A DNA stretch of 38,573 bases, taken from contig JBAWVR010000002.1 in assembly GCA_037147155.1 (NCBI GenBank), positions 1 through 38,573 on the forward strand. The letters run 5' to 3'. Position numbers and translations under genes: made by a program. The notes beneath the pieces are model-generated. The model did no database searches. It had not been told where the DNA came from and was given only the letters and a program-made list of their open reading frames with translations. The stretch's first letter is position 1. Every line of letters starts with the position of its first letter. The DNA is from a bacterium. Lineage in GTDB: Bacteria > Patescibacteriota > Minisyncoccia > Phycocordibacterales > GWA1-40-21. Shown in pieces: positions 1,054 through 37,008 of the stretch.

Positions 1054-3519
1054 ATGTCAGACAAAAAAGATAAAAAAGTTGAGGAGGCGATTGTGCCACA
1101 CGTAAACGTCTCAGGACGTAGTATTACGACTGAAATGAAAGAGTGTTATTTGGACTATGCGATGTCCGTTATTACTCAGCGTGCTTTACCTGATGTTCGT
1201 GATGGTCTAAAACCAGTTCACCGTCGTATTCTTTTTGCTATGAACCAAATGGGTTTAACAGCAGGAGCCAAGACTCGTAAATCCGCCGCTGTGGTGGGTG
1301 AAGTGCTTGGTAACTATCACCCTCATGGTGACGTGGCAGTGTATGAATCTATGGTTAAACTCGCACAAGATTTTGCCTGTCGTTACCCTTTGATTATTGG
1401 TCAAGGTAACTTTGGTTCCATTGATGGAGATAGTGCTGCGGCCATGCGTTATACCGAAGCCAAGATGTCCAAGATGTCCTCTGAACTTTTGCGAGACATT
1501 GAAAAAGAAACTGTTAACTGGCGACCAAACTATGACAACACCAAGAAGGAACCTGAAGTGCTGCCAACCGCTGTTCCGAACTTACTTCTAAACGGTATTA
1601 TGGGTATTGCTGTCGGTATGGCCACCAACATCCCACCACACAACCTAGGTGAAGTGATTGATGCTACTTCATATTTGTTGGAGAATCCAAAAGACACCAC
1701 CACTGAAGATTTGCTCAAATTCATCAAGGGTCCTGACTTTCCAATGGGTGGAATTATTTTTAATGAAGCCGATATCAAGCGTGCATATGCTACCGGTCGC
1801 GGTGGTGTGGTTTGTCGCGGTCAGGCTGAAATCGTCGAAGACAAAAAAGGAGCTTTTCAAATTATCATTACTTCTATTCCGTACCGTGTGAACAAAGCGG
1901 ATTTTATTATGAGTATCGCGGACTTGGTTCGCGACAAAAAGATTGATGGTATTAAGGGTTTGCGTGATGAGTCGGCCAAGGATATTCGAGTGGCGATTGA
2001 CCTCAAGGCTGGAGCTCAACCGCAAAAAGTTTTAAATTTCCTTTACAAACACACTCAATTAGAAGATTCTTTCAACTTTAACGTCGTGGCTCTGGTTGAT
2101 GGTGTACCACAAACTTTGTCTCTCAAAGCAATTTTGGATAATTTTATTTCACACCGCAAGATTGTGATTCGTCGTCGTACAGAATTTGATTTGGACAAAG
2201 CTCTTGCACGTGAGCATATTTTGCTCGGCTTGAAGAAGGCATTGGACCATATTGACGAGATTATTAAACTCATCAAAAAGTCCAAAGATGTTGAAGAAGC
2301 TCGCTTGGCTTTGATGAAGACTTTCAAATTCTCTGAAATTCAAGCCAATGCAATTCTGGAAATGAAATTGCAGAAATTGGCTGGTTTGGAACGCAAAAAA
2401 ATTGAGGATGAATTGAAGGCGGTCCAGGCTCTGATTGAAGATCTGAAAGACATCCTAGCTAATCCAAAAAGAATCATCAAAGTCATCAAGGATGAATTGA
2501 TTGATATCAAAGCACGATATGGTGATGAACGCCGTACCAAAGTGGTCAAAGGTGGCGTCGCCAACCTCTCTGATGAGGATTTGATTCCGGATGAAGAAAC
2601 TGTTTTGGTGTTGACCGCTGGCGGTTATGTCAAACGCACCAATCCTGATGAATATCACAAACAGAAGCGTGGTGGTGTCGGTGTGGTGGATCTGGATACC
2701 AAAGAAGAAGATTTTGTGACTACACTTTTGACTACCACTACCCACAGTGATGTTCTCTTCTTTACCGATAAAGGCAAGGCCTTCCAGATCAAAATGTATG
2801 ATTTGCCAGAAGGTAAGCGTGCTACCAAGGGTAAGTCTATCGTGAACTTCCTCTCAATTGGTGACAATGAAAAGATTACCTCTGTTCTCGCTATGCCAAA
2901 GGGAGTGAAGAATTCTGGTCTCAGCTTATTTATGATTACCAAGCAAGGTACTGCCAAAATGGTAGAAGCCAAAGCTTTTGAAGATGTTCGTCGCAACGGT
3001 TTGATTGCTATTACCTTAAATGATGGTGATGAACTCAAGTCTGTCTCATTCGTGGACAAGGGTGATGATGTTATCGTCGCTACTACCAAAGGTCAGTCTA
3101 TTCGTTTCAAGGGCACTGATATTCGCGTCATGGGTCGCAATGCGGCTGGTGTCCGTGGTATCAAGCTTGGCAAGGGTGACTTCGTGATTGGTGCTGATGT
3201 GGTCAAGAAAGATATGGAGAATCCAAGCATGATGGTGATTTCGGCTAACGGTTACGGTAAGAAGACTCCACTCAAGGAATACAAGACACAGGGTCGCGGT
3301 GGTTCCGGTATCAAGACCATGAAGGTTACTCCAAAGACGGGAGAGATTATCAGTTCCAAAGTGGTATCAAGTGAGGAAGAACTGGTAGTAATTTCTAAAC
3401 AAAGTCAGGTTATTCGTACTAGTTTGGAAGAGATTCCATCACTCGGCCGTCAGACTCAGGGTGTGCGTGTGATGAAGCTTCGCGAGGGTGATGGCATTGC
3501 TTCACTTATTTGTCTCTAG
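1054..3519 (+). CDS. gyrA: DNA gyrase subunit A
   Basis: 821 aa. Contains [25 protein letters not shown], the catalytic region AAAMRYTEA, a GyrA-box-like KQKRGGVG, and repeated C-terminal beta-pinwheel blades. Confidence 0.95.
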
Positions 3520-4164: not shown

Positions 4165-5459
4165 AAGCATTTCAAATAATTTTATTAGGCTTTTTTGTGG
4201 CTCTAGCCATTGCCGGTTTAGTGGCTTTTGCAATGTTTCGTGGAGGTAGTCAGCAGGCTTCAACTATTACAGTTTGGGGAATGGTGCCTAATGAATCAAT
4301 TGATAAAATTCTCGGCGAATTACGTTCTAGTCGCAATGGAGCCGTGAACATGACTTACATTTACAAAGATCCAGCTGTTTTTGATAGCGATTTGTTAAAC
4401 GCTATCGCTAGTGGTAAAAGTCCGGATGCGGTCATTCTACCGAATGATTTGATTTATCGTTATTCTGATAAAATAATTCCTGTCCCATATTCTAATCTTA
4501 GTGAAAGTGATTTTAGAGATACTTATGTAGACATGGCTTCAGTTTATCTAACAACTAATGGAATTTTGGCTTTACCGATTAGTGTTGATCCGTTGATTAT
4601 GTATTGGAATAGAGATATTTTTAATACCACAGGGAAAACTAATCCACCAGCCTATTGGGATGAATTACAAGCTATGGTACCGGATTTTGTAGTTAAAAAT
4701 GCTAGCAAGGACATTATGCGCTCAGGTGTCGCTTTTGGAGAATTTAGAAATGTTACACATCCCAAGGAACTCTTGACTCTGCTTATGATGCAAGCAGGCA
4801 GTCGTATGGTGGAGAATAATGCAGGTTATTACACTGCTAATCTAGACGAATCAACTACCGGTAGTGGTGTTTACCCAGCTAGTGCCGCTTTTAGATACTA
4901 CAGCGACTTTGCTGATCCAAATAAAATTGTCTATAGTTGGAATCGTTCTTTGAAGAATGATAAACAAACATTTATCGCAGGAGATTTGGCTGTTTATTTT
5001 GGTTTAGCTTCGGAATACAATGAGATAGCAGCCAAGAACCCTAATTTGAATTTTGGTATTTCCTCAGTTCCACAAAAACGTGATGCGCGTATTTTTATAA
5101 CAGATGGTTTGATGAATGGTTTTTCTATTTTGAAAGGAAGTGCCAATCCGTCCAACGCCCTCACTCAGATTACGAAAATTTTGGCACCAGATGTTTTGCA
5201 GTACTGGGTAGATTACGGAAAAATAGTTCCAGCTAGACGAGATATGTTAGCTACGACCAATAGTGATAATATTTTAAAAGTTTTATCATACCGTTCTGCT
5301 CTGTCAGCCAAAACCTGGATGGACCCAGATGGCAAAGAGACTGATAGAATATTTCAGCAGTCCATCGAATCAATATCCACTGGAAAAAATTATGTCTATG
5401 AAGCAATTGCTGATTTAAATGGCGGTATTAACTTATTATTAGCTAAATATAAAAAGTAA
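4161..5459 (+). CDS. membrane-anchored extracellular solute-binding-protein-like protein
   Basis: 432 aa with an N-terminal TM helix. Overall resemblance to family-1 periplasmic sugar-binding proteins. Its start overlaps the upstream stop (ATGA). No ABC permease or ATPase gene lies nearby. Confidence 0.5.
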   Translation: MKAFQIILLGFFVALAIAGLVAFAMFRGGSQQASTITVWGMVPNESIDKILGELRSSRNGAVNMTYIYKDPAVFDSDLLNAIASGKSPDAVILPNDLIYRYSDKIIPVPYSNLSESDFRDTYVDMASVYLTTNGILALPISVDPLIMYWNRDIFNTTGKTNPPAYWDELQAMVPDFVVKNASKDIMRSGVAFGEFRNVTHPKELLTLLMMQAGSRMVENNAGYYTANLDESTTGSGVYPASAAFRYYSDFADPNKIVYSWNRSLKNDKQTFIAGDLAVYFGLASEYNEIAAKNPNLNFGISSVPQKRDARIFITDGLMNGFSILKGSANPSNALTQITKILAPDVLQYWVDYGKIVPARRDMLATTNSDNILKVLSYRSALSAKTWMDPDGKETDRIFQQSIESISTGKNYVYEAIADLNGGINLLLAKYKK

Positions 5460-5908
5460 TGAAGAAATATTTATTAACATCTTTTTTGATTTCAATCTTT
5501 TTTGTTACTTCTGTTGGCCCAGTTTTTGCTCAGAGTGAATTGCCATCCAAACCCGTTACACCCAGCAGTTTTAGTGGCCTAGTAAATTGCGGCAACAAGA
5601 TTGTGAATGGCAAAATCGATCCGTCGGACCAATGTACTTTTGATAAGTTGGTGGAAATGTTTAAATATATAATGAAGTACGCTCTATGGCTGATTATGCT
5701 GGCTATGGTCGGAGTCTTTGTTTTTATGGGCTTTATGTATATCAAATCGCAGGGTAGTTCTGCTGAAGTTAAAAAAGCCTGGGATATGATGAAAAAAATG
5801 GCCATCGGTGTATTTTGGATGCTATGTGCCTGGATTATTGTTTATACAATTTTATCTCAATTGGGTAATGATAAGACAAATATTTTGAGATTTTTTAGCA
5901 AACCATAA
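5459..5908 (+). CDS. T4SS-pilin-like (TrbC/VirB2-type) small membrane protein, paralog 1
   Basis: Signal peptide ending VFAQS, then two TM helices separated by a short basic loop (YIKSQGSSAEVKKAWD). The start overlaps the upstream stop (TAATG). Confidence 0.6.
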   Translation: MKKYLLTSFLISIFFVTSVGPVFAQSELPSKPVTPSSFSGLVNCGNKIVNGKIDPSDQCTFDKLVEMFKYIMKYALWLIMLAMVGVFVFMGFMYIKSQGSSAEVKKAWDMMKKMAIGVFWMLCAWIIVYTILSQLGNDKTNILRFFSKP

Positions 5909-5934
5909 TAATTAAACATAAATTAATAACAAAT

Positions 5935-6270
5935 ATGAAAAAAATATTATTTATTTTACTTGCCTGGAGTCTGCCAATGTTTTTTGTTTTTGCTGCCAGT
6001 TCCGCCACTTTGGATAATCCATTAAAATGGGATACTTTGGAGGGGGCAGTGGCTGGTATTATGAGTGTGATTGTTAAAGTTGGTGCCATTGCTGTCATTC
6101 TAGCCTTTATTTGGGTAGGTTGGATGTATGTTAAGGCTCAGGGAGCACCAAAAGATATCGAGGCTGCACACAAGGCTTTTCAATACACAGTTATTGGCGC
6201 TTTGGTTTTATTAGGAGCTGATGTGATTGCTAATCTGATTGCTGGTACAGTCAAAACTATTCAAAAATAA
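5935..6270 (+). CDS. T4SS-pilin-like protein, paralog 2 (most canonical)
   Basis: Signal peptide; LDNPL motif; TM1; loop YVKAQGAPKDIEAAHKAF; TM2. This is the typical layout of CPR pilin-family proteins. Confidence 0.75.
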   Translation: MKKILFILLAWSLPMFFVFAASSATLDNPLKWDTLEGAVAGIMSVIVKVGAIAVILAFIWVGWMYVKAQGAPKDIEAAHKAFQYTVIGALVLLGADVIANLIAGTVKTIQK

Positions 6271-6272
6271 TT

Positions 6273-7061
6273 ATGAAAAAAACTACCCCAGCTTTATTGC
6301 TTTCTAGTCTGATTGTGGCACTTAGTCCGTTTGTGGCCTCAGCCTATTCTGCTACCAATATTAAAGATTTATTGCAGGGTACAGTGGATAATATTTTGAA
6401 ACCAGTTGTGGTAATTTTAATCGGTTTGGCAGTTTTGGCGACTCTTTGGAATGGTTTTAAGATTGTTAAAGAAAGCGGGGGTAAAGATATTGCCAAATAT
6501 CGCACAGCTTTAATTATGAGTATTATTGCTCTAGCCGTTATGGTTAGCTTCTGGGGAATTATTGGGATAATGCGTGATACTTTTGGTTTGACTCGTTCAG
6601 ATAGCGTACTTAATCGTTTGGGTAGTGGCTCTACAAATATTAACGGCCAGATAGTCTCTGGTTCGAATGCTCAGTTTACAGCCGGATCTGCAGAGTCAAT
6701 ATTTTTAAATAACTCTAGCCAAAATACCACTATTAAAAATAGTTATAGTTCAGGTGCTGGTACTATTGATGGAGCCGGTTTTGATACAAAGTCTATTGAC
6801 GGTGTGGGTGTAGTCCAAACAGCGGGTGCTAGTAGCGGTTCATTTCAAAGTATAGATGCAAATGGCAATATGATTAGTCCTCAGAATGATGCAATAAAAA
6901 CTGTTGGTGGTTCTGGTAATGCTAACTCTAATAATGATTCAGTAGTTAGTGATATGTATGGTAACCAGGGTGCAGGCTGGCAGGGCACTAAACAAGTAGA
7001 TACTTTCAATAATACTGTCGCCAAGCCAACCAATGGTTTTATTAATTGGATATTTAAGTAA
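6273..7061 (+). CDS. T4SS-pilin-like protein, paralog 3, with a long Ser/Gly/Asn-rich C-terminal extension
   Basis: Signal peptide, two TM helices and the loop KIVKESGGKDIAKYR, followed by about 150 aa of low-complexity tail. Confidence 0.6.
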   Translation: MKKTTPALLLSSLIVALSPFVASAYSATNIKDLLQGTVDNILKPVVVILIGLAVLATLWNGFKIVKESGGKDIAKYRTALIMSIIALAVMVSFWGIIGIMRDTFGLTRSDSVLNRLGSGSTNINGQIVSGSNAQFTAGSAESIFLNNSSQNTTIKNSYSSGAGTIDGAGFDTKSIDGVGVVQTAGASSGSFQSIDANGNMISPQNDAIKTVGGSGNANSNNDSVVSDMYGNQGAGWQGTKQVDTFNNTVAKPTNGFINWIFK

Positions 7062-7065
7062 AAGT

Positions 7066-7413
7066 ATGAAAAATATTTTACTAGCTTTTACAGTTTTGGC
7101 ACCAATATTTACTTTTGCAGCCAATCTAAAGACAGATTATTTGAGATCTTTTTTTGGCAGTGCCACAACCATCATTACAAGCTTAGCTGTTTTGGTAATT
7201 TCTATCACCGTTCTGTATTTGATATTAAGTGTGGTTTCTTTTATGAGAAATAATATGATTGATAAAGCCAAGAGGGCTGAGGCGGCTACGGGAATCTTGT
7301 GGAGTGTTATAGCTATTGCTGTTATGGTGTCTATTTGGGGTATAGTTTCAATTCTCCAGGGCATGTTTTTTAGTGATCTTTCTGGTCAGGTATTCAACGG
7401 TTCAATTAAATAA
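7066..7413 (+). CDS. T4SS-pilin-like protein, paralog 4
   Basis: The in-frame ATG at 7066 gives MKNILLAFTVL.. with a signal peptide. Two TM helices with a basic loop. Confidence 0.6.
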   Translation: MKNILLAFTVLAPIFTFAANLKTDYLRSFFGSATTIITSLAVLVISITVLYLILSVVSFMRNNMIDKAKRAEAATGILWSVIAIAVMVSIWGIVSILQGMFFSDLSGQVFNGSIK

Positions 7414-7650
7414 AAGGCATTAAACCTTACAAGTTCTGTACAACTTTCGTTTATTTTTAAGTAAAAGCTCAGGGCCTTACAAAGCTCTGAGTGTTCGTTA
7501 TTGTGATTGGGTTGTGGGTGTAAAGTAATATTTAAAGTTATCTACACCGCATCTTTTTTACTATTTGCTTTTTTGTATTTGATGATATAATTATAAGGTA
7601 AAAAGGTCATAGGTCAAAAATTATTAATAAATATTTTTACAAAATAAAAA

Positions 7651-8004
7651 ATGAAAAAAGTTTTAGCAATCAGTTTGTCATCAGTATTGCCATTTATGGC
7701 TTTAGCTGCCACACCAAGTACTCAGTATATTTCAACTTGGATTGAACAAATCCAAAGTATTATTAACAGTCTCGTTCCAGTATTGGTTGGTTTGTCCGTT
7801 CTATTCTTCATTTGGAGTATTTTCAAGTACATCAAATCTGATGATCCAAAGACCAAGGGCGACGCTGCAAAGGGAATGATGTGGGGTATTGTTTTCTTGG
7901 CTGTTATCGTTTCAGTTTGGGGATTGGTTGCATTATTGCAAAACATCTTCGGTGTTGATACTCGTGGTGTAAGTAATGTTCGAAACCTCGTACCTACAAA
8001 CTAA
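7651..8004 (+). CDS. T4SS-pilin-like protein, paralog 5
   Basis: Signal peptide (MALAATP), TM1, loop YIKSDDPKTKGDAAKG, TM2. Confidence 0.65.
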   Translation: MKKVLAISLSSVLPFMALAATPSTQYISTWIEQIQSIINSLVPVLVGLSVLFFIWSIFKYIKSDDPKTKGDAAKGMMWGIVFLAVIVSVWGLVALLQNIFGVDTRGVSNVRNLVPTN

Positions 8005-8013
8005 TTTAAGTTT

Positions 8014-8256
8014 ATGTCTGCTGACCTTTTAATTAACAAAATTTTAGAAAATATAATCAACCCGATGGTTTATTTTCTGATGGTTGTTGCTATTATTGTC
8101 TTTATTTGGGGATTAGTTCAATATATAAATAAAGAAGCACCGGCTGACAAACATAAAGAAGGTATCGATAAAATGATCTATGGAGCTATCGGTCTGACGA
8201 TTATGTTTTCAGCTCAGGGAATAATTCACATTTTGTTAGATTTTTTAGGTAGGTAG
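8014..8256 (+). CDS. T4SS-pilin-like protein, paralog 6, without an obvious signal peptide
   Basis: 80 aa with two TM helices and the loop YINKEAPADKHKEGIDK. Same core layout as paralogs 1-5. Confidence 0.5.
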   Translation: MSADLLINKILENIINPMVYFLMVVAIIVFIWGLVQYINKEAPADKHKEGIDKMIYGAIGLTIMFSAQGIIHILLDFLGR

Positions 8257-9078: not shown

Positions 9079-9266
9079 TGCGCGAGAAACGAGCAATGGG
9101 AATTGCTCGTGTGAGGATTTGAAAGACGGAAGAATATTTTTAGTAAAAAATATTCTGAGTCGGGGTTGCGACCAGTTTTGGCTGACTGAGACAAAACTGA
9201 GTTGTGACCGAGTCCTCCTTATTCTGTCTCGAAGACGATCAGTAAATTATTCCTGACCGAGTCCTT
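9079..9266 (+). repeat. tRNA-matched trailing module, unit A
   Basis: tgcgcgaga + 25-nt hairpin + gaggatttgaa is the inverted tRNA-Leu 3' end. Then GAAAGACGG (9121), a hairpin with a tagtaa loop (9141), GAGtCGGGGTTGCG (9157), a second hairpin, GTGACC (9204), and tcctc pairing back. Tail: aattattcctgaccgagtcct. Confidence 0.7.
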
Positions 9267-10425: not shown

Positions 10426-10479
10426 CATCATAAATATTAAAAACCACCAGCTGTCCCTGGTGGTTTTGTTTATGATGTG
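10426..10479 (+). terminator. long intrinsic terminator hairpin after tRNA-Lys
   Basis: Inner stem aaaccaccag/ctggtggttt plus outer stem cacatcataaa/tttatgatgtg, which starts in the last nucleotides of the tRNA. Confidence 0.8.
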
Positions 10480-10612
10480 CGAGCCGGAGTGCGACGGCAC
10501 GAGGCGGGGTCGCGGGTTTTTCTAGCAAGAAAAAACCTGTGACCACAATAAGTGTGCGCCCACAAAATTATTTTTCGAAGGAGAAAAGCGTACTCGCGGT
10601 CCTACCAGTTTT
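10480..10612 (+). repeat. tRNA-matched trailing module, unit B (divergent arms)
   Basis: GCCGGAG-tgc gacg gca-CGAGGCGGGGTCGCGG (10505), a hairpin with a tagcaa loop (10523), GTGACC (10539), then gtgtgcgccca (antisense of the tRNA-Lys acceptor end) and a tcctaccag T-arm-like copy. Confidence 0.6.
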
Positions 10613-11323: not shown

Positions 11324-11342
11324 TCGAGTCCCACCTCGGGCG
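11324..11342 (-). repeat. inverted copy of the tRNA-Leu(TAA) 3' end, with no full module
   Basis: The plus strand tcgagtcccacctcgggc equals the sense sequence of the minus-strand tRNA, giving an 18-nt inverted repeat across the terminator. It is followed only by gggaaaac before the HAD gene. Confidence 0.6.
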
Positions 11343-11344
11343 TC

Positions 11345-11372
11345 AAAAAAACACCTTACGGTGTTTATTTTG
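11345..11372 (-). terminator. intrinsic terminator after tRNA-Leu(TAA)
   Basis: aaacacc gtaa ggtgttt plus a T-run, read on the minus strand. Confidence 0.8.
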
Positions 11373-11455
11373 TGCCCGAGGTGGGACTCGAACCCACACG
11401 GCCTTACGACCCCGAGATTTTAAGTCTCGTACGGCTACCATTACGTCACTCGGGC
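11373..11455 (-). tRNA. tRNA-Leu (anticodon TAA)
   Basis: Minus strand gcccgagtgacgtaatggtag..gagacttaaaatctc..long variable arm..gggttcgagtcccacctcgggca. Confidence 0.9.
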
Positions 11456-20954: not shown

Positions 20955-21092
20955 TGCGCAGGGAGGGATTTGAAAGACGGAGCACACGGAGCGGAGCTAA
21001 GTCCAAGTCTACCAAGACTTGGGTGCGAGTCCGGGTCGGAAAAATTCACGAGTGACGATGAGTGAATTATTTCTGACAATTCCCTCCCTGCG
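20955..21092 (+). repeat. tRNA-matched trailing module, unit E1 (long form)
   Basis: 20955-20974 is a perfect 20/20 reverse complement of tRNA-Tyr 20893-20912. Then AGACGGAGCACACGGAGCGGAGCTAAGTC, a hairpin, GGTGCGAGTCCGGGTCGG, a hairpin with a GTGACGAT loop, ATTTCTGACAATT, and the direct copy ccctccctgcg. Confidence 0.75.
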
Positions 21093-21218
21093 TAGGGATT
21101 TGAAAGACGGGAGAATATTTTTAGTAAAAAATTTGCTGAGACGGGGTCGCGAGTACTTAGACTTTTGAAATTTTGTAATTTCAAAAGACTTAGTAACTCG
21201 TGACCAAATCCCTCGCAC
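21093..21218 (+). repeat. tRNA-matched trailing module, unit E2 (short form)
   Basis: tagggattt GAAAGACGGG, a hairpin with a tagtaa loop, GAGaCGGGGTCGCGAG (21142), a long hairpin, CGTGACC (21200), then aaatccctcgca pairing back to the 5' arm. Confidence 0.75.
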
Positions 21219-25150: not shown

Positions 25151-25239
25151 AATTATAATCCTTTTGGGTTAATGGCAAAAACCGTTGCCATATGTTTATC
25201 TGTGAATGATATTAGAACATTTTGAGTGGAATGGCAAGG

Positions 25240-25301
25240 GGGGGAGACGGGAGAGAGACTTGGTCACGAGTTTCTTCCTCGTCGTCGCCGAAAGAATAAT
25301 C
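25240..25301 (-). repeat. tRNA-matched trailing module, G tail (second direct arm copy)
   Basis: Minus strand attattctttcggcgacgacgaggaagaaactcGTGACCaagtctctctcccg. This is a second direct copy of the tRNA-Leu(CAA) T-stem/acceptor strand. Confidence 0.55.
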
Positions 25302-25439
25302 CGGGAGAGAGACTTGGTCAGGCGTTCTTGGTTCGTCGTCACTCACCAAGCCGCACGACCCTGACTCGTGCTGGGATTCTGCTGAATCCCGACTTCGCTA
25401 CGCTCCGTGCACTCCGTCCTTCAAGTCTCTCTCCCGGCA
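25302..25439 (-). repeat. tRNA-matched trailing module, unit G1 (long form)
   Basis: 25420-25439 is a perfect 20/20 inverted copy of the tRNA-Leu(CAA) 3' end. Minus strand: GGACGGAGTGCACGGAGCGTAGCGAAGTC, a hairpin, AGCACGAGTCAGGGTCGTG, a hairpin with a GTGACGAC loop, CCTGACCAAG, and the direct copy tctctctcccgg. Confidence 0.75.
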
Positions 25440-25480
25440 CATATAAAACAAAAAAGCGCTCTGCGCGCTCTTTTAGTTTG
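25440..25480 (-). terminator. intrinsic terminator after tRNA-Leu(CAA)
   Basis: Minus strand aaaagagcgc gcaga gcgctttttt. Confidence 0.8.
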
Positions 25481-25563
25481 TGCCGGGAGAGAGACTTGAA
25501 CTCTCACGAGCTTGCGCCCGATAGATTTTGAGTCTATTGCGTCTACCATTCCGCCATCCCGGC
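25481..25563 (-). tRNA. tRNA-Leu (anticodon CAA)
   Basis: Minus strand gccgggatggcggaatggtag..tagactcaaaatcta..long variable arm..gagagttcaagtctctctcccggca. Confidence 0.9.
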
Positions 25564-35859: not shown

Positions 35860-35892
35860 GGCCAAAATTACGTAACCTTTTGCTTTTTAATA

Positions 35893-35933
35893 CAAGTCTT
35901 GCCGACTAGTGTTGTTGGGTGTTTAATTATATT
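35893..35933 (+). promoter_or_regulatory. promoter-like element, copy a
   Basis: CAAGTCTTGC-N14-GGGTGTTTAATTA, which fits a -35-like TTGCCG and a TG-extended -10-like region. It is duplicated at 36406. Confidence 0.5.
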
Positions 35934-35974
35934 TGGTAAATCTGTTCCTTAACCTTTTTACGGGGAGGTGTATT

Positions 35975-36172
35975 ATGAATAAACCTGTTTGTGAGCGTCC
36001 AAGACCACTGTGCCAAGAAACCAAGTGCTGTACGGAGAGTTGTCTTAGAAGTGAGATGAAAGGTGGTCACACAGCAACTTGTCCACAGTGCCAAAAGGAG
36101 GTGCCCATGTCATCAATGGAATCTAAGCCCGGAGGTGGTTCGTTTGTTTGTCTGACTTGCCGTGGAAAATGA
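35975..36172 (+). CDS. 65-aa Cys-rich small protein (zinc-ribbon-like)
   Basis: ggggaggtg SD before the ATG at 35975. Contains 10 Cys, including the CPQC and CLTC pairs. Confidence 0.5.
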   Translation: MNKPVCERPRPLCQETKCCTESCLRSEMKGGHTATCPQCQKEVPMSSMESKPGGGSFVCLTCRGK

Positions 36173-36348
36173 AGTGTTCCCAAACTCTAAACCAAGGAGG
36201 TGTAACACTGACCCACTTTACTCAACTTTTCGGGGTGAGAAAAAGACGGTATTTTCTACACTTGAATTTCGTAATGACTAACCATTATCAGAAATAAGAG
36301 GTGAAACAATAAGGATGAACCCTTTCGATTTTGAGTCTATATGCAATT

Positions 36349-36376
36349 CACCCCGCGACCGTACGGGGTGTTTTTT
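36349..36376 (+). terminator. intrinsic terminator
   Basis: caccccg cgaccgta cggggtg tttttt. Confidence 0.85.
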
Positions 36377-36405
36377 AATATTACAAAATTATTTATATGT
36401 TCTTT

Positions 36406-36446
36406 CAAGACTTGCTAGTATTCTCTTGAGGGTGTTTAATTAATTT
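36406..36446 (+). promoter_or_regulatory. promoter-like element, copy b
   Basis: CAAGACTTGC-N14-GGGTGTTTAATTA. Same spacing and an identical 13-mer to copy a. Confidence 0.5.
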
Positions 36447-36803
36447 AGCAAATTTAGTACATTGTAAAGGTGGAAAGGAGGTGACTCACTAACATACTTG
36501 GAGGAATAGAAAACAATACGGAATGTTTTCTGTTGGCCGTGGGCGAAACCATCATCCTTATCCCAGAAAGGGACAGATTATCTCAGCTCATTTGGGTTTG
36601 CAATTCAGCATTACCCAGCAACTTGAGAGGAGGTGGTCCTAATTCCTTGTGGGCCAATCATCGTATTGTAGGCGGAAGCTGAACCGTGTTCGAGCGCCTC
36701 GGTGTGCTCCATGATTCATAAGCCTGTCCTAGACTTCTAGCCTCGTCGTTAGATTGGGATGCAAATTAAACCATCGCTTTGTCCGTACACTGCGGTGGTT
36801 TTC
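36447..36803 (+). ncRNA. candidate ~350-nt non-coding RNA of unknown family
   Basis: Bounded by promoter copy b and a terminator-like hairpin (aaaccatcgc..gcggtggttt+T). No ORF of 60 aa or more on either strand. Several local helices, for example agaaaaca/tgttttct and ttggcc/ggccaa. Confidence 0.4.
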
Positions 36804-36927
36804 TATTCAATATCACCTTCAGTGGTTTAAAATTTTGTAAGATTGTTCCTTGTCGGCGGCGCTGGTGGTACGGCCCACATCAGTGACTGTGAAGTAAACA
36901 TTATTAACCCCTATTTACGTTTAGACT

Positions 36928-36959
36928 ACCCACCTCGGACCGTAAGGTGGGTTTTTTTA
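36928..36959 (+). terminator. intrinsic terminator upstream of dnaX
   Basis: acccacct cggaccgta aggtgggt ttttttt. Confidence 0.85.
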
Positions 36960-37008
36960 TTTTTCCCATTTGTCTGCTATAATTCAGATAAGTTAATCAA
37001 TCAAAATT

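Follow-up and report, generated by a model that had tools for sequence, protein, structure and literature searches.

What occupies the DNA immediately 3' of the tRNA-Leu(CAA) gene on contig JBAWVR010000002.1 (38,573 nt, analysed over its full length and called the window below)? A sequence-only reading of this locus had noticed a helix-forming block that is shared with a tRNA-Tyr locus of the same window. The block is part of a unit of 90–140 nt, in which a conserved core of two hairpins is enclosed by an inverted and a direct copy of the 3' segment of the neighbouring gene. Comparison with other genomes showed that such units form an undescribed family, widespread in Patescibacteria (the Candidate Phyla Radiation, CPR) and present in some Elusimicrobia. 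We tentatively interpret the family, with slightly less than even confidence, as an insertion element that is non-autonomous, duplicates its target and has a conserved fold, formed by RNA or single-stranded DNA (ssDNA).

Architecture of the unit at tRNA-Leu(CAA)

The locus lies on the minus strand and, read from the tRNA gene onwards, consists of the following parts.

25480..25563 (-), tRNA-Leu(CAA), the host gene (ARAGORN; Rfam tRNA, 60 bits)
25449..25475 (-), intrinsic-terminator-like hairpin and U-tract between tRNA-Leu(CAA) and the unit (terminator scan)
25420..25439 (-), A5, the 5' arm TGCCGGGAGAGAGACTTGAA (sequence and inverted repeat I4)
25363..25418 (-), P2, the first hairpin of the core (covariance-model alignment, fold, covariation of the clamp and P2b)
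25316..25360 (-), P3, the second hairpin, GGUCG...CUGACC (covariance model, fold, covariation)
25300..25315 (-), S', the 3' arm AAGTCTCTCTCCCGGA (sequence and covariance model)
25245..25299 (-), 5'-truncated second copy of the unit, the "short form" of the sequence-only reading (sequence and direct repeat D13)

On the tRNA-sense strand a unit of the family runs from an optional hairpin (Px, with a CUGC loop) through A5 and the core to S'. The core comprises P2 and P3, with the conserved elements GNCGGAG...GAGN'C, GG and UCG...YUGACC. P2 opens with a 3-bp clamp (G-N-C/G-N'-C) followed by a GGA//GA internal loop, and P3 opens with UCG.../...YUGA, including a fixed G•U pair, often with an AU bulge, tandem G•A pairs and a GACG loop. 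The two arms are complementary over ~9 bp and form P1, directly abutting the core, so that the whole unit is a three-way junction.

In the tRNA-Leu(CAA) unit the clamp is GAC/GUC, and beyond the GGA//GA internal loop P2 contains the helix P2b (GUGC/GCAC), the mini-hairpin GAGCGUAGCGAA (motif match at 25405 (-)) and a distal hairpin with an AGCA loop. What the sequence-only reading called the "long form" is a unit with this additional GAGC-NNN-GCGA mini-hairpin in P2. The third pair of P3 is the invariant G•U, and P3 also shows the tandem G•A pairs and the GACG loop. Both arms have their source in X, the 3' segment of the tRNA from T-loop position ~54 to the discriminator: A5 is the exact reverse complement of the last 20 nt of the tRNA (T-loop, 3' strand of the T-stem, 3' strand of the acceptor and A73), and S', the partner of A5 in P1, repeats positions 57–72 in direct orientation. 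The terminator-like hairpin occupies the loop region L of the long palindrome X-L-A5 (I4, 29-nt arms, 90% complementary). All that remains of the truncated second copy is the distal portion of P3 and GUGACC, together with a further copy of the tRNA 3' segment. The sequence-only reading had overlooked that every unit is flanked by copies of the 3' segment of the neighbouring tRNA itself, one inverted and one direct.

Base pairing and covariation

The starting observation was a comparison of the tRNA-Leu(CAA) unit (G1, minus strand, GACGGAGTGCACGGAGCGTAGCGAAGTC at 25418-25391, then AGCACGAGTCAGGGTCG) with the first tRNA-Tyr unit (E1, GACGGAGCACACGGAGCGGAGCTAAGTC, then GGTGCGAGTCCGGGTCG). The reported identity of 24 of 28 core positions is recovered, with mismatches at positions 8, 9, 19 and 23, as is the swap between UG/CA and CA/UG that preserves the helix: GTGC at 25412-25409 pairs with GCAC at 25371-25368 in G1, and GCAC at 20982-20985 with GTGC at 21023-21026 in E1. 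The tRNA-Lys unit keeps the same helix, as had been noticed (GUGC-GACG-GCAC), and the GACG-type loops of the second hairpin and the CTGAYNA strings described as conserved are present in the sequence. Chance, which had been judged a poor explanation, is indeed one: GAGNCNGGRTYG has eight exact matches in the window, all inside tRNA-downstream units and all in tRNA orientation, and a two-block pattern gives 5 matches in the window compared with none in 100 shuffles. The helix in question is P2b of the three-way junction and covaries both in the 8 window units and in an alignment of 140 units, where the pair types at the swapped columns are CG 71, GC 38 and UA 20 for one, and CG 53, GC 52, UA 7 and AU 5 for the other. 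The proposed selection on a base-paired helix is thus borne out.

The fold was evaluated on three alignments. The first (A1) is a plain MAFFT alignment of 45 units, for which the structure was written by hand and from which a covariance model (R1) was built; 84% of its cells are paired, compared with 64% after shuffling and 33–47% with slid partners. The alignments of the 8 window units and of the 140 units (~100 genome fragments) were fitted to R1, which favours the model, and A1 agrees with them: the window units alone show 91% paired cells (65% shuffled), with 30 of 39 pairs changed on both sides, and the 140 units show 88.4% (60.7% shuffled, 35–44% in slid controls), with double changes at 37 of 39 pairs and 1519 double-change cells versus 492 expected. 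All nine P1 pairs covary. The clamp pair N/N' is of the Watson-Crick type in 117 of 122 units, and all four pair types are used. Thirty-seven units that fall outside the search pattern still keep g.CGGA, GAG.cgGGgtcg and gtGAcc.

The sense of the fold can be read from its wobble pairs. G•U outnumbers A•C by 67:6 in P3 and by 22:13 in P2, and tandem G•A pairs are recurrent, hence the folded strand is the tRNA-sense strand. A strand-specific fold fits RNA, but ssDNA would look alike. Of the earlier claim of selection on RNA structure, covariation supports the paired helix but cannot by itself separate RNA from ssDNA.

The mini-hairpin motif GARCRNAGYGAR (GCGAAGC-type triloop hairpins) is found at 59 sites in loci L121-L239 (the numbers denote the loci fetched from other genomes) and at ~6 in shuffles, an approximately tenfold enrichment; 36 of 54 lie within 250 nt 3' of a tRNA, and the motif is present also in the spacers between tRNA and unit. 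Two structural candidates were rejected. A kissing interaction of the Px loop CUGC with GCAG in P2 shows no co-occurrence (7 of 52 units with Px, 24 of 102 units without it). A box C/D motif or K-turn does not agree, on inspection, with the internal loop, which is GGA//GA with a one-nucleotide offset and not a 3-nt bulge followed by G•A/A•G.

Arms copied from the neighbouring gene

The arrangement seen at tRNA-Leu(CAA) is general. A5 (9–20 nt) is the reverse complement of the 3' segment of the host gene from T-loop position 54, and S' repeats the host segment directly, beginning at C56/G57; this T-loop position is the start of S' in 64 of the 66 well-matched cases (≥10/14). The direct repeats are between 9 and >45 nt long, and the arms differ at every locus, where they equal the neighbouring tRNA. 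In L123, L206 and L184 the identity of S' with the tRNA locus extends from 19 to at least 25 nt beyond the end of the tRNA, into the trailer and the terminator (a similar extension in L126 differs by a 1-nt indel). Such an extension in young copies shows that the segment was duplicated at the DNA level. Elsewhere only the first ~9 nt of S', the P1 part, survive. Where a gene does not encode CCA, S' does not regularly carry it either, which indicates that S' comes from DNA or from a precursor and not from the mature tRNA. A retroviral-type primer-binding site or a copy of mature tRNA was rejected for this reason and because both arms agree with the trailer as encoded in the genome.

Two forms of the inner end of A5 exist: UC/UU, in Watson-Crick pairing with R57 and A58, in 102 units, and GA, forming tandem sheared pairs, in 31. 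The tRNA-Lys units depart from the common anchor point: at 10440-10575 (+) of the window, L191 6600-6760, L148 2440-2580 and L141 5790-6000, they anchor on the acceptor end and trailer, not on the T-loop. A core with a short P2 is common to at least the tRNA-Lys units of the window and L191.

The arms raise the possibility of a tRNA-like minihelix RNA, in which the unit would mimic an acceptor and T-stem, be cut by RNase P and RNase Z and receive CCA, like mascRNA or the tRNA-like domain of tmRNA; YrlA is another RNA of this tRNA-like type. In some units, among them tRNA-Leu(CAA), tRNA-Tyr unit 1 and tRNA-Trp unit 1, A5 does include the antisense of the acceptor 3' strand, giving a 12–17-bp helix of acceptor/T-stem type, and S' retains the discriminator base. 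Acceptor antisense within 70 nt upstream is, however, found in 28 of 148 units versus 15 in the shuffled-query control, so that a full minihelix mimic is not general; the junction replaces the T-loop, S' is reduced in older copies to the 9 nt of P1, and neither the tRNA nor the tmRNA covariance model matches the unit. We regard this explanation as very improbable.

A further alternative, somewhat less remote but still improbable, is a self-cleaving or self-splicing ribozyme acting as a "phantom intron" of the T-loop. In this scheme S' would be the partner of tRNA nucleotides 1–56, with [X-L-A5-core] removed between them, perhaps in the form of a circular RNA. Minimum free energy (MFE) folds indeed pair the 5' acceptor strand of the tRNA with S' and contain a long X:A5 hairpin, the period of the arrays equals the putative intron, and T-loops are known intron sites in archaeal tRNAs and one tmRNA. 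The unit also has a superficial likeness to the hammerhead (a three-way junction, GAAA, and CUGAUGA in tRNA-Trp unit 1). The hammerhead core consists of CUGANGA between stems I and II, GAAA between II and III, and a single NUH cleavage nucleotide between III and I. In the units P2 and P3 are linked by GG(GG) in place of one cleavable nucleotide; the consensus GUGACC has a G at the position of hammerhead C3 and one extra nucleotide, CUGAUGA being confined to tRNA-Trp unit 1; and the GAA of the "GAAAG" motif is merely the antisense of the T-loop UUC and is absent from Lys-type units. On these grounds the hammerhead was rejected. No hammerhead, twister, pistol, hatchet, group I or group II model matched a unit at E ≤ 5 in the window or at E ≤ 1 in 7 loci, and these families were likewise rejected. 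Against excision, the upstream tRNA is always intact, and no "virtual spliced" tRNA can be built for the 44 units without an upstream tRNA; an obligatory T-loop intron was rejected because the virtual spliced tRNA could not be built.

Units in the window

The window contains 8 tRNA genes, 8 full units and 3 truncated copies, all located just 3' of a tRNA and on the tRNA-sense strand, in agreement with the linkage to tRNA genes that the sequence-only reading had proposed. The covariance model gives 8 matches, with E between 3e-11 and 6e-22, followed in rank by one at E = 0.06. Six of the seven tRNAs with a visible 3' side are followed by an intrinsic-terminator-like hairpin and then by 1–3 units. 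Apart from the tRNA-Leu(CAA) locus, these are the following.

20962..21087 (+), tRNA-Tyr unit 1 (E1, long form), covariance model 69 bits, E = 8e-17
21092..21215 (+), tRNA-Tyr unit 2, in tandem with unit 1, covariance model 69 bits
23670..23779 (+), tRNA-Trp unit 1, covariance model 74 bits
23781..23891 (+), tRNA-Trp unit 2, covariance model 88 bits
23894..23945 (+), tRNA-Trp truncated third copy (sequence and repeats D8/D16)
9111..9219 (+), tRNA-Leu(TAG) unit, covariance model 86 bits
9219..9267 (+), tRNA-Leu(TAG) truncated second copy (sequence and repeat D6)
10469..10554 (+), tRNA-Lys unit with the short P2, covariance model 49 bits
11477..11593 (-), tRNA-Cys unit, between tRNA-Cys and tRNA-Leu(TAA), covariance model 64 bits
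11324..11355 (-), palindrome-only locus after tRNA-Leu(TAA) (inverted repeat I2, 32-nt arms, 88% complementary)

5'-truncated stubs close the tRNA-Leu(CAA), tRNA-Trp and tRNA-Leu(TAG) arrays. The inverted repeats I2, I3, I4 and I10 of the window have arms of 25–32 nt that are 87–92% complementary. At tRNA-Leu(TAA) (11324-11391 (-)) the terminator is followed by an 18-nt antisense copy of the gene's own 3' end, with neither a core nor a direct copy; this palindrome-only locus is either a remnant or a precursor state.

Tandem arrays with the period [X-L-A5-core] occur at the tRNA-Tyr, tRNA-Trp and tRNA-Leu loci of the window and in L123, L126, L212 and L138. Each window unit is closer to relatives in other genomes than to the other units of the window. 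Nearest-neighbour cores from different genomes (≥75% identity) lie beside a tRNA for the same amino acid in 14 of 94 cases, with 9% expected by chance, and cores that are 89% identical are found by tRNA-Ser(CGA) in L181 and by tRNA-Gly(CCC) in L133. Hence no core lineage is tied to a particular tRNA. The tRNA-Lys subtype looks like an exception, orthologous across distant genomes.

Distribution and hosts

A loose DNA pattern run on viral contigs gave ~119 chance matches in high-GC phages and one real match, which is why a three-block pattern was chosen for the genome scan (one genome per species). It matched at least 119 fragments. Among the matches listed nearly all are Patescibacteria (Saccharibacteria, Paceibacterota, Kaiser-, Yonath-, Moranii- and Zambryskibacteria, and others), together with four Elusimicrobia, which upholds the CPR origin suggested earlier; a few high-GC matches outside CPR were not confirmed by the covariance model. 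With R1, at least 127 + 32 units were found in the fetched loci, including the 8 of the window, that is, at least ~150 further copies on at least ~110 fragments. Rfam 15 has no family that matches the units at gathering thresholds or E ≤ 5 in the window, or at E ≤ 1 in 7 loci, and no description of the element was found in full-text literature searches.

As to the hosts, 97 of 154 units have their start no more than 120 nt 3' of a tRNA on the same strand, typically at 45–60 nt and with any anticodon, a further 13 lie within 500 nt of a tRNA as second copies of an array, and 14 are at contig edges. At least 7 of the 30 apparent orphans directly follow tmRNA genes (L145, L140, L163, L149, L152, L223 and L221). 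These units are located 60–120 nt 3' of ssrA and copy the segment of the tmRNA from the T-loop to the 3' end; ~4 more orphans follow tmRNA-like ...CATCTCCAC ends. Relative to one gene per genome, tmRNA hosts are over-represented. What the hosts have in common is an RNA that terminates in a T-arm and acceptor strand. Within the fetched loci 85 of 156 tRNAs (~55%) carry an R1-type unit.

About 10 more tRNAs carry other core types, with the same arm logic and no Rfam match. Examples are L142 ~6400-6575 (-), L219 ~1900-2000 (+) and L164 ~5640-5760 (+), and also L208, L204, L150 and L126; one such core reads A5-GAA-GCCCGAUUGAGC[hairpin]CCAAUCGGGR-UAYUG[hairpin, loop UGUAA]-CGA...

The specific pattern has a single match in 2.9 million viral contigs, which assigns the element to cellular CPR genomes and not to phages, and a phage att-linked element was rejected on this count. 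The match (L011 2840-3319 (-), IMG/VR IMGVR_UViG_3300033463_005745) is the only "viral" contig with the element and contains an array of at least 3 units; the 3.3 kb fetched include no tRNA, and the contig could be a CPR fragment wrongly classified as viral.

Elements with a tyrosine integrase classically leave direct repeats of a tRNA or tmRNA 3' segment beginning in the T-loop, and the units could in principle be inert scars, either leftover att repeats of large islands or phages, or chance similarities. The insert is at most 190 nt long and carries no cargo, and its fold, with massive covariation, is conserved across phyla; the family is almost absent from viral contigs, and chance is excluded by the shuffles. 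Covariation and the conserved core effectively refute this explanation, which we consider hardly credible.

Proposed readings: insertion element or trailer RNA

The preferred reading, a target-duplicating insertion element, is supported by the fixed start of S', its extension into the terminator, the tandem arrays, the truncated copies and the turnover among tRNAs. The layout X - spacer - inverted copy - body - direct copy is that expected if a small circle [X-L-A5-core] had inserted at T-loop position 56/57 by a Campbell-type event, which would resemble the folded-hairpin integration of IMEX (integrative mobile elements exploiting Xer) such as CTX-phi. We propose that the insertion would be harmless because the 3' end of the tRNA is regenerated. 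By way of the duplicated tRNA segment, copies would then expand into tandem arrays and lose their outer parts first; in the course of evolution they would come to lie beside different tRNAs. The conserved fold, formed either by RNA read through past the tRNA terminator or by ssDNA, would be recognised by a trans-acting host factor. Re-templating of A5 might proceed by templated correction of the quasi-palindrome or by gene conversion from the tRNA.

Several observations weigh against the insertion reading. No recombinase, transposase or reverse transcriptase was detected by Pfam in or beside any unit among the window open reading frames (ORFs) scanned, which include all those adjoining the tRNA loci. 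The reading does not account for how an inverted copy fitting each new tRNA would arise. The tRNA-Lys units of four distant genomes share both a core subtype and the unusual anchor point, which looks like old vertical inheritance and hence function. The sequences of core motifs and loops persist over phylum-level distances, and the units are dense for genomes so streamlined. The UC/GA dimorphism of A5 points to selection on the junction geometry, not only to upkeep of the palindrome. Finally, no presence/absence polymorphism was seen among the strain-level contigs (L240-L245), of which five overlap unit loci and are identical there (99.6–100% overall). An apparent breakpoint at position 25219 of the window was rejected as an assembly artefact, being a Nextera adaptor (…AGATGTGTATAAGAGACAG) fused at the start of L242 (1-47) and L244 (1-18).

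Function is what the strongest alternative invokes: a cis-acting 3'-trailer RNA of tRNA and tmRNA precursors, in which A5 pairs either with X (T-arm and trailer) or with the decoy S'. A protein or small ligand bound by the junction would stabilise A5:S' and so free the 3' part of the tRNA for folding and 3' processing, and the role might be riboswitch- or attenuator-like control, or that of a processing or stability module for stable RNAs. The constant position of the units, tRNA-sense and directly downstream, agrees with this. Between the tRNA-Cys unit and tRNA-Leu(TAA) only ~20 nt are left (S' included; ~33 nt after GUGACC), and no promoter-like site was seen before tRNA-Leu(TAA), which suggests that the unit resides on a read-through precursor. 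In cells where S' and the tRNA have diverged, A5 pairs only with the tRNA in 55 and only with S' in 25, i.e. it tracks the tRNA over the diverged S', and A5 of the tRNA-Lys units matches the unconstrained trailer at 13 of 14 positions. The unit is aptamer-like as well: P1 varies, whereas the junction, internal loop and loops are conserved, even in the 37 units outside the pattern. MFE folds of tRNA plus unit favour A5:X, and the tRNA-Lys subtype is apparently orthologous. On the other hand, ~45% of the tRNAs in the same loci have no unit, the copy number varies from 1 to 3 with truncated and orphan copies, an intrinsic terminator with a U-tract precedes every window unit, and the core subtype is unrelated to tRNA identity; the identity of S' reaching into trailer and terminator is a signature of duplication and not a selected feature. 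We consider a trailer RNA a serious rival, somewhat less probable than the insertion element.

A broader claim, of an active RNA device on tRNA and tmRNA precursors, seems to us unlikely, whether as a ligand- or protein-gated maturation switch or as a new catalytic or mobile RNA that copies itself onto T-arm-ended RNA genes. Either version, if true, would be a class of system without a described counterpart, and the switch would gate the maturation of stable RNAs in organisms with minimal regulatory repertoires. If real, the family would be among the most abundant non-coding features of CPR genomes, apparently unannotated, and a candidate new layer of tRNA/tmRNA biology in minimal-genome organisms. 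It offers a natural case of a conserved nucleic-acid fold joined to neighbour-templated arms, which bears on how tRNA genes can be targeted without being destroyed. The element may also serve as a diagnostic marker for CPR DNA, and it can be tested directly in the few cultured Saccharibacteria.

Comparison with known systems

Islands and phages of tyrosine recombinases share with the units their targets (any tRNA, and tmRNA), a flanking repeat that starts in the T-loop, the regenerated gene and tandem accretion; in the units, too, a direct repeat of the gene 3' segment from the T-loop flanks the insert and leaves the gene intact. The CPR insert differs in its size (90–190 nt), in having neither integrase nor cargo, and in its extra inverted target copy and covarying junction. 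IMEX (CTX-phi) and integron attC sites have a similar layout of target copy, spacer, inverted arm, body and target copy, a strand-specific fold with G•T and G•A pairs, and tandem arrays, and the units likewise show an inverted target copy near one junction and a strand-specific fold. IMEX and attC, however, use dif/XerCD or attI/IntI and fixed cores, whereas the CPR arms are locus-specific and correspond to the local tRNA; the units, whose target is the T-loop, lack any dif- or attI-like core.

REP/BIME, Correia, RPE and MITE-like repeats are also short, non-coding, multi-copy, post-genic and structured, often overlap terminators and, where they are mobilised at all, depend on factors in trans. 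The 8 full and 3 partial copies in 38.6 kb are short, non-coding and multi-copy as well. These repeats have constant family termini and short, fixed target duplications, while the termini of the CPR units are templated by the tRNA and the duplication measures 9 to >45 nt. Three-way-junction riboswitch aptamers and T-box leaders resemble the units in a variable but paired P1, a conserved junction, a segment matching tRNA and alternative pairings, and in the units as well the P1 sequence varies with its pairing conserved and the junction nucleotides are constant. Riboswitches and T-boxes sit in mRNA 5' leaders and have a defined regulon, in contrast to an element that is located 3' of stable-RNA genes and varies in copy number.

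The nearest literature concerns archaeal tRNA introns as transposable elements and CPR rRNA introns. Mobile archaeal tRNA introns, and split or permuted tRNA genes (Fujishima et al. 2010, as cited in PMC10714607), resemble the units in being small, moving among tRNA genes, being able to sit in the T-loop and pairing with the exon, and differ in that they interrupt the gene and need a bulge-helix-bulge motif and splicing endonuclease, whereas in CPR the tRNA is intact and the element comes after it.

Neighbouring genes and other observations

The housekeeping genes of the window are gyrA, a short IF-2 gene, clpB, topA, serS, miaA, alr, parB, dprA, dus and dnaX. The best relatives of alr are only 50–55% identical, and the few with a source name are from Paceibacterota/Minisyncoccia, which makes the organism a CPR bacterium; the alr ORF as read here has no record of its own. 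The genes downstream of the units are mutually unrelated (alr, a hypothetical gene, the next tRNA and a convergent miaA).

In L162 (1190-3900) two ORFs that look by eye like IS3-family transposases split tRNA-Ser(TGA) from its unit by 2.7 kb. An integrase between the tRNA-Ser and the distant unit was rejected on this basis, these ORFs being apparent secondary insertions. In L188 (~1215-1290 (-)) ARAGORN predicts, 33 nt before a unit, a "tRNA-Stop(tta)", possibly of suppressor type or miscalled.

Upstream of the dnaX-like gene of the window, a stretch of 1.15 kb (35860-37008) lacks ORFs of 80 or more amino acids, has no Rfam match even at E ≤ 10 and contains a 34-nt direct repeat (35917-35950 / 36430-36463). 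At 5459-8256 (+) there are 5–6 small paralogous ORFs in tandem, with domains like those of type IV secretion system pilin/TrbC and a common repeat that encodes GxxVSxWGxV.

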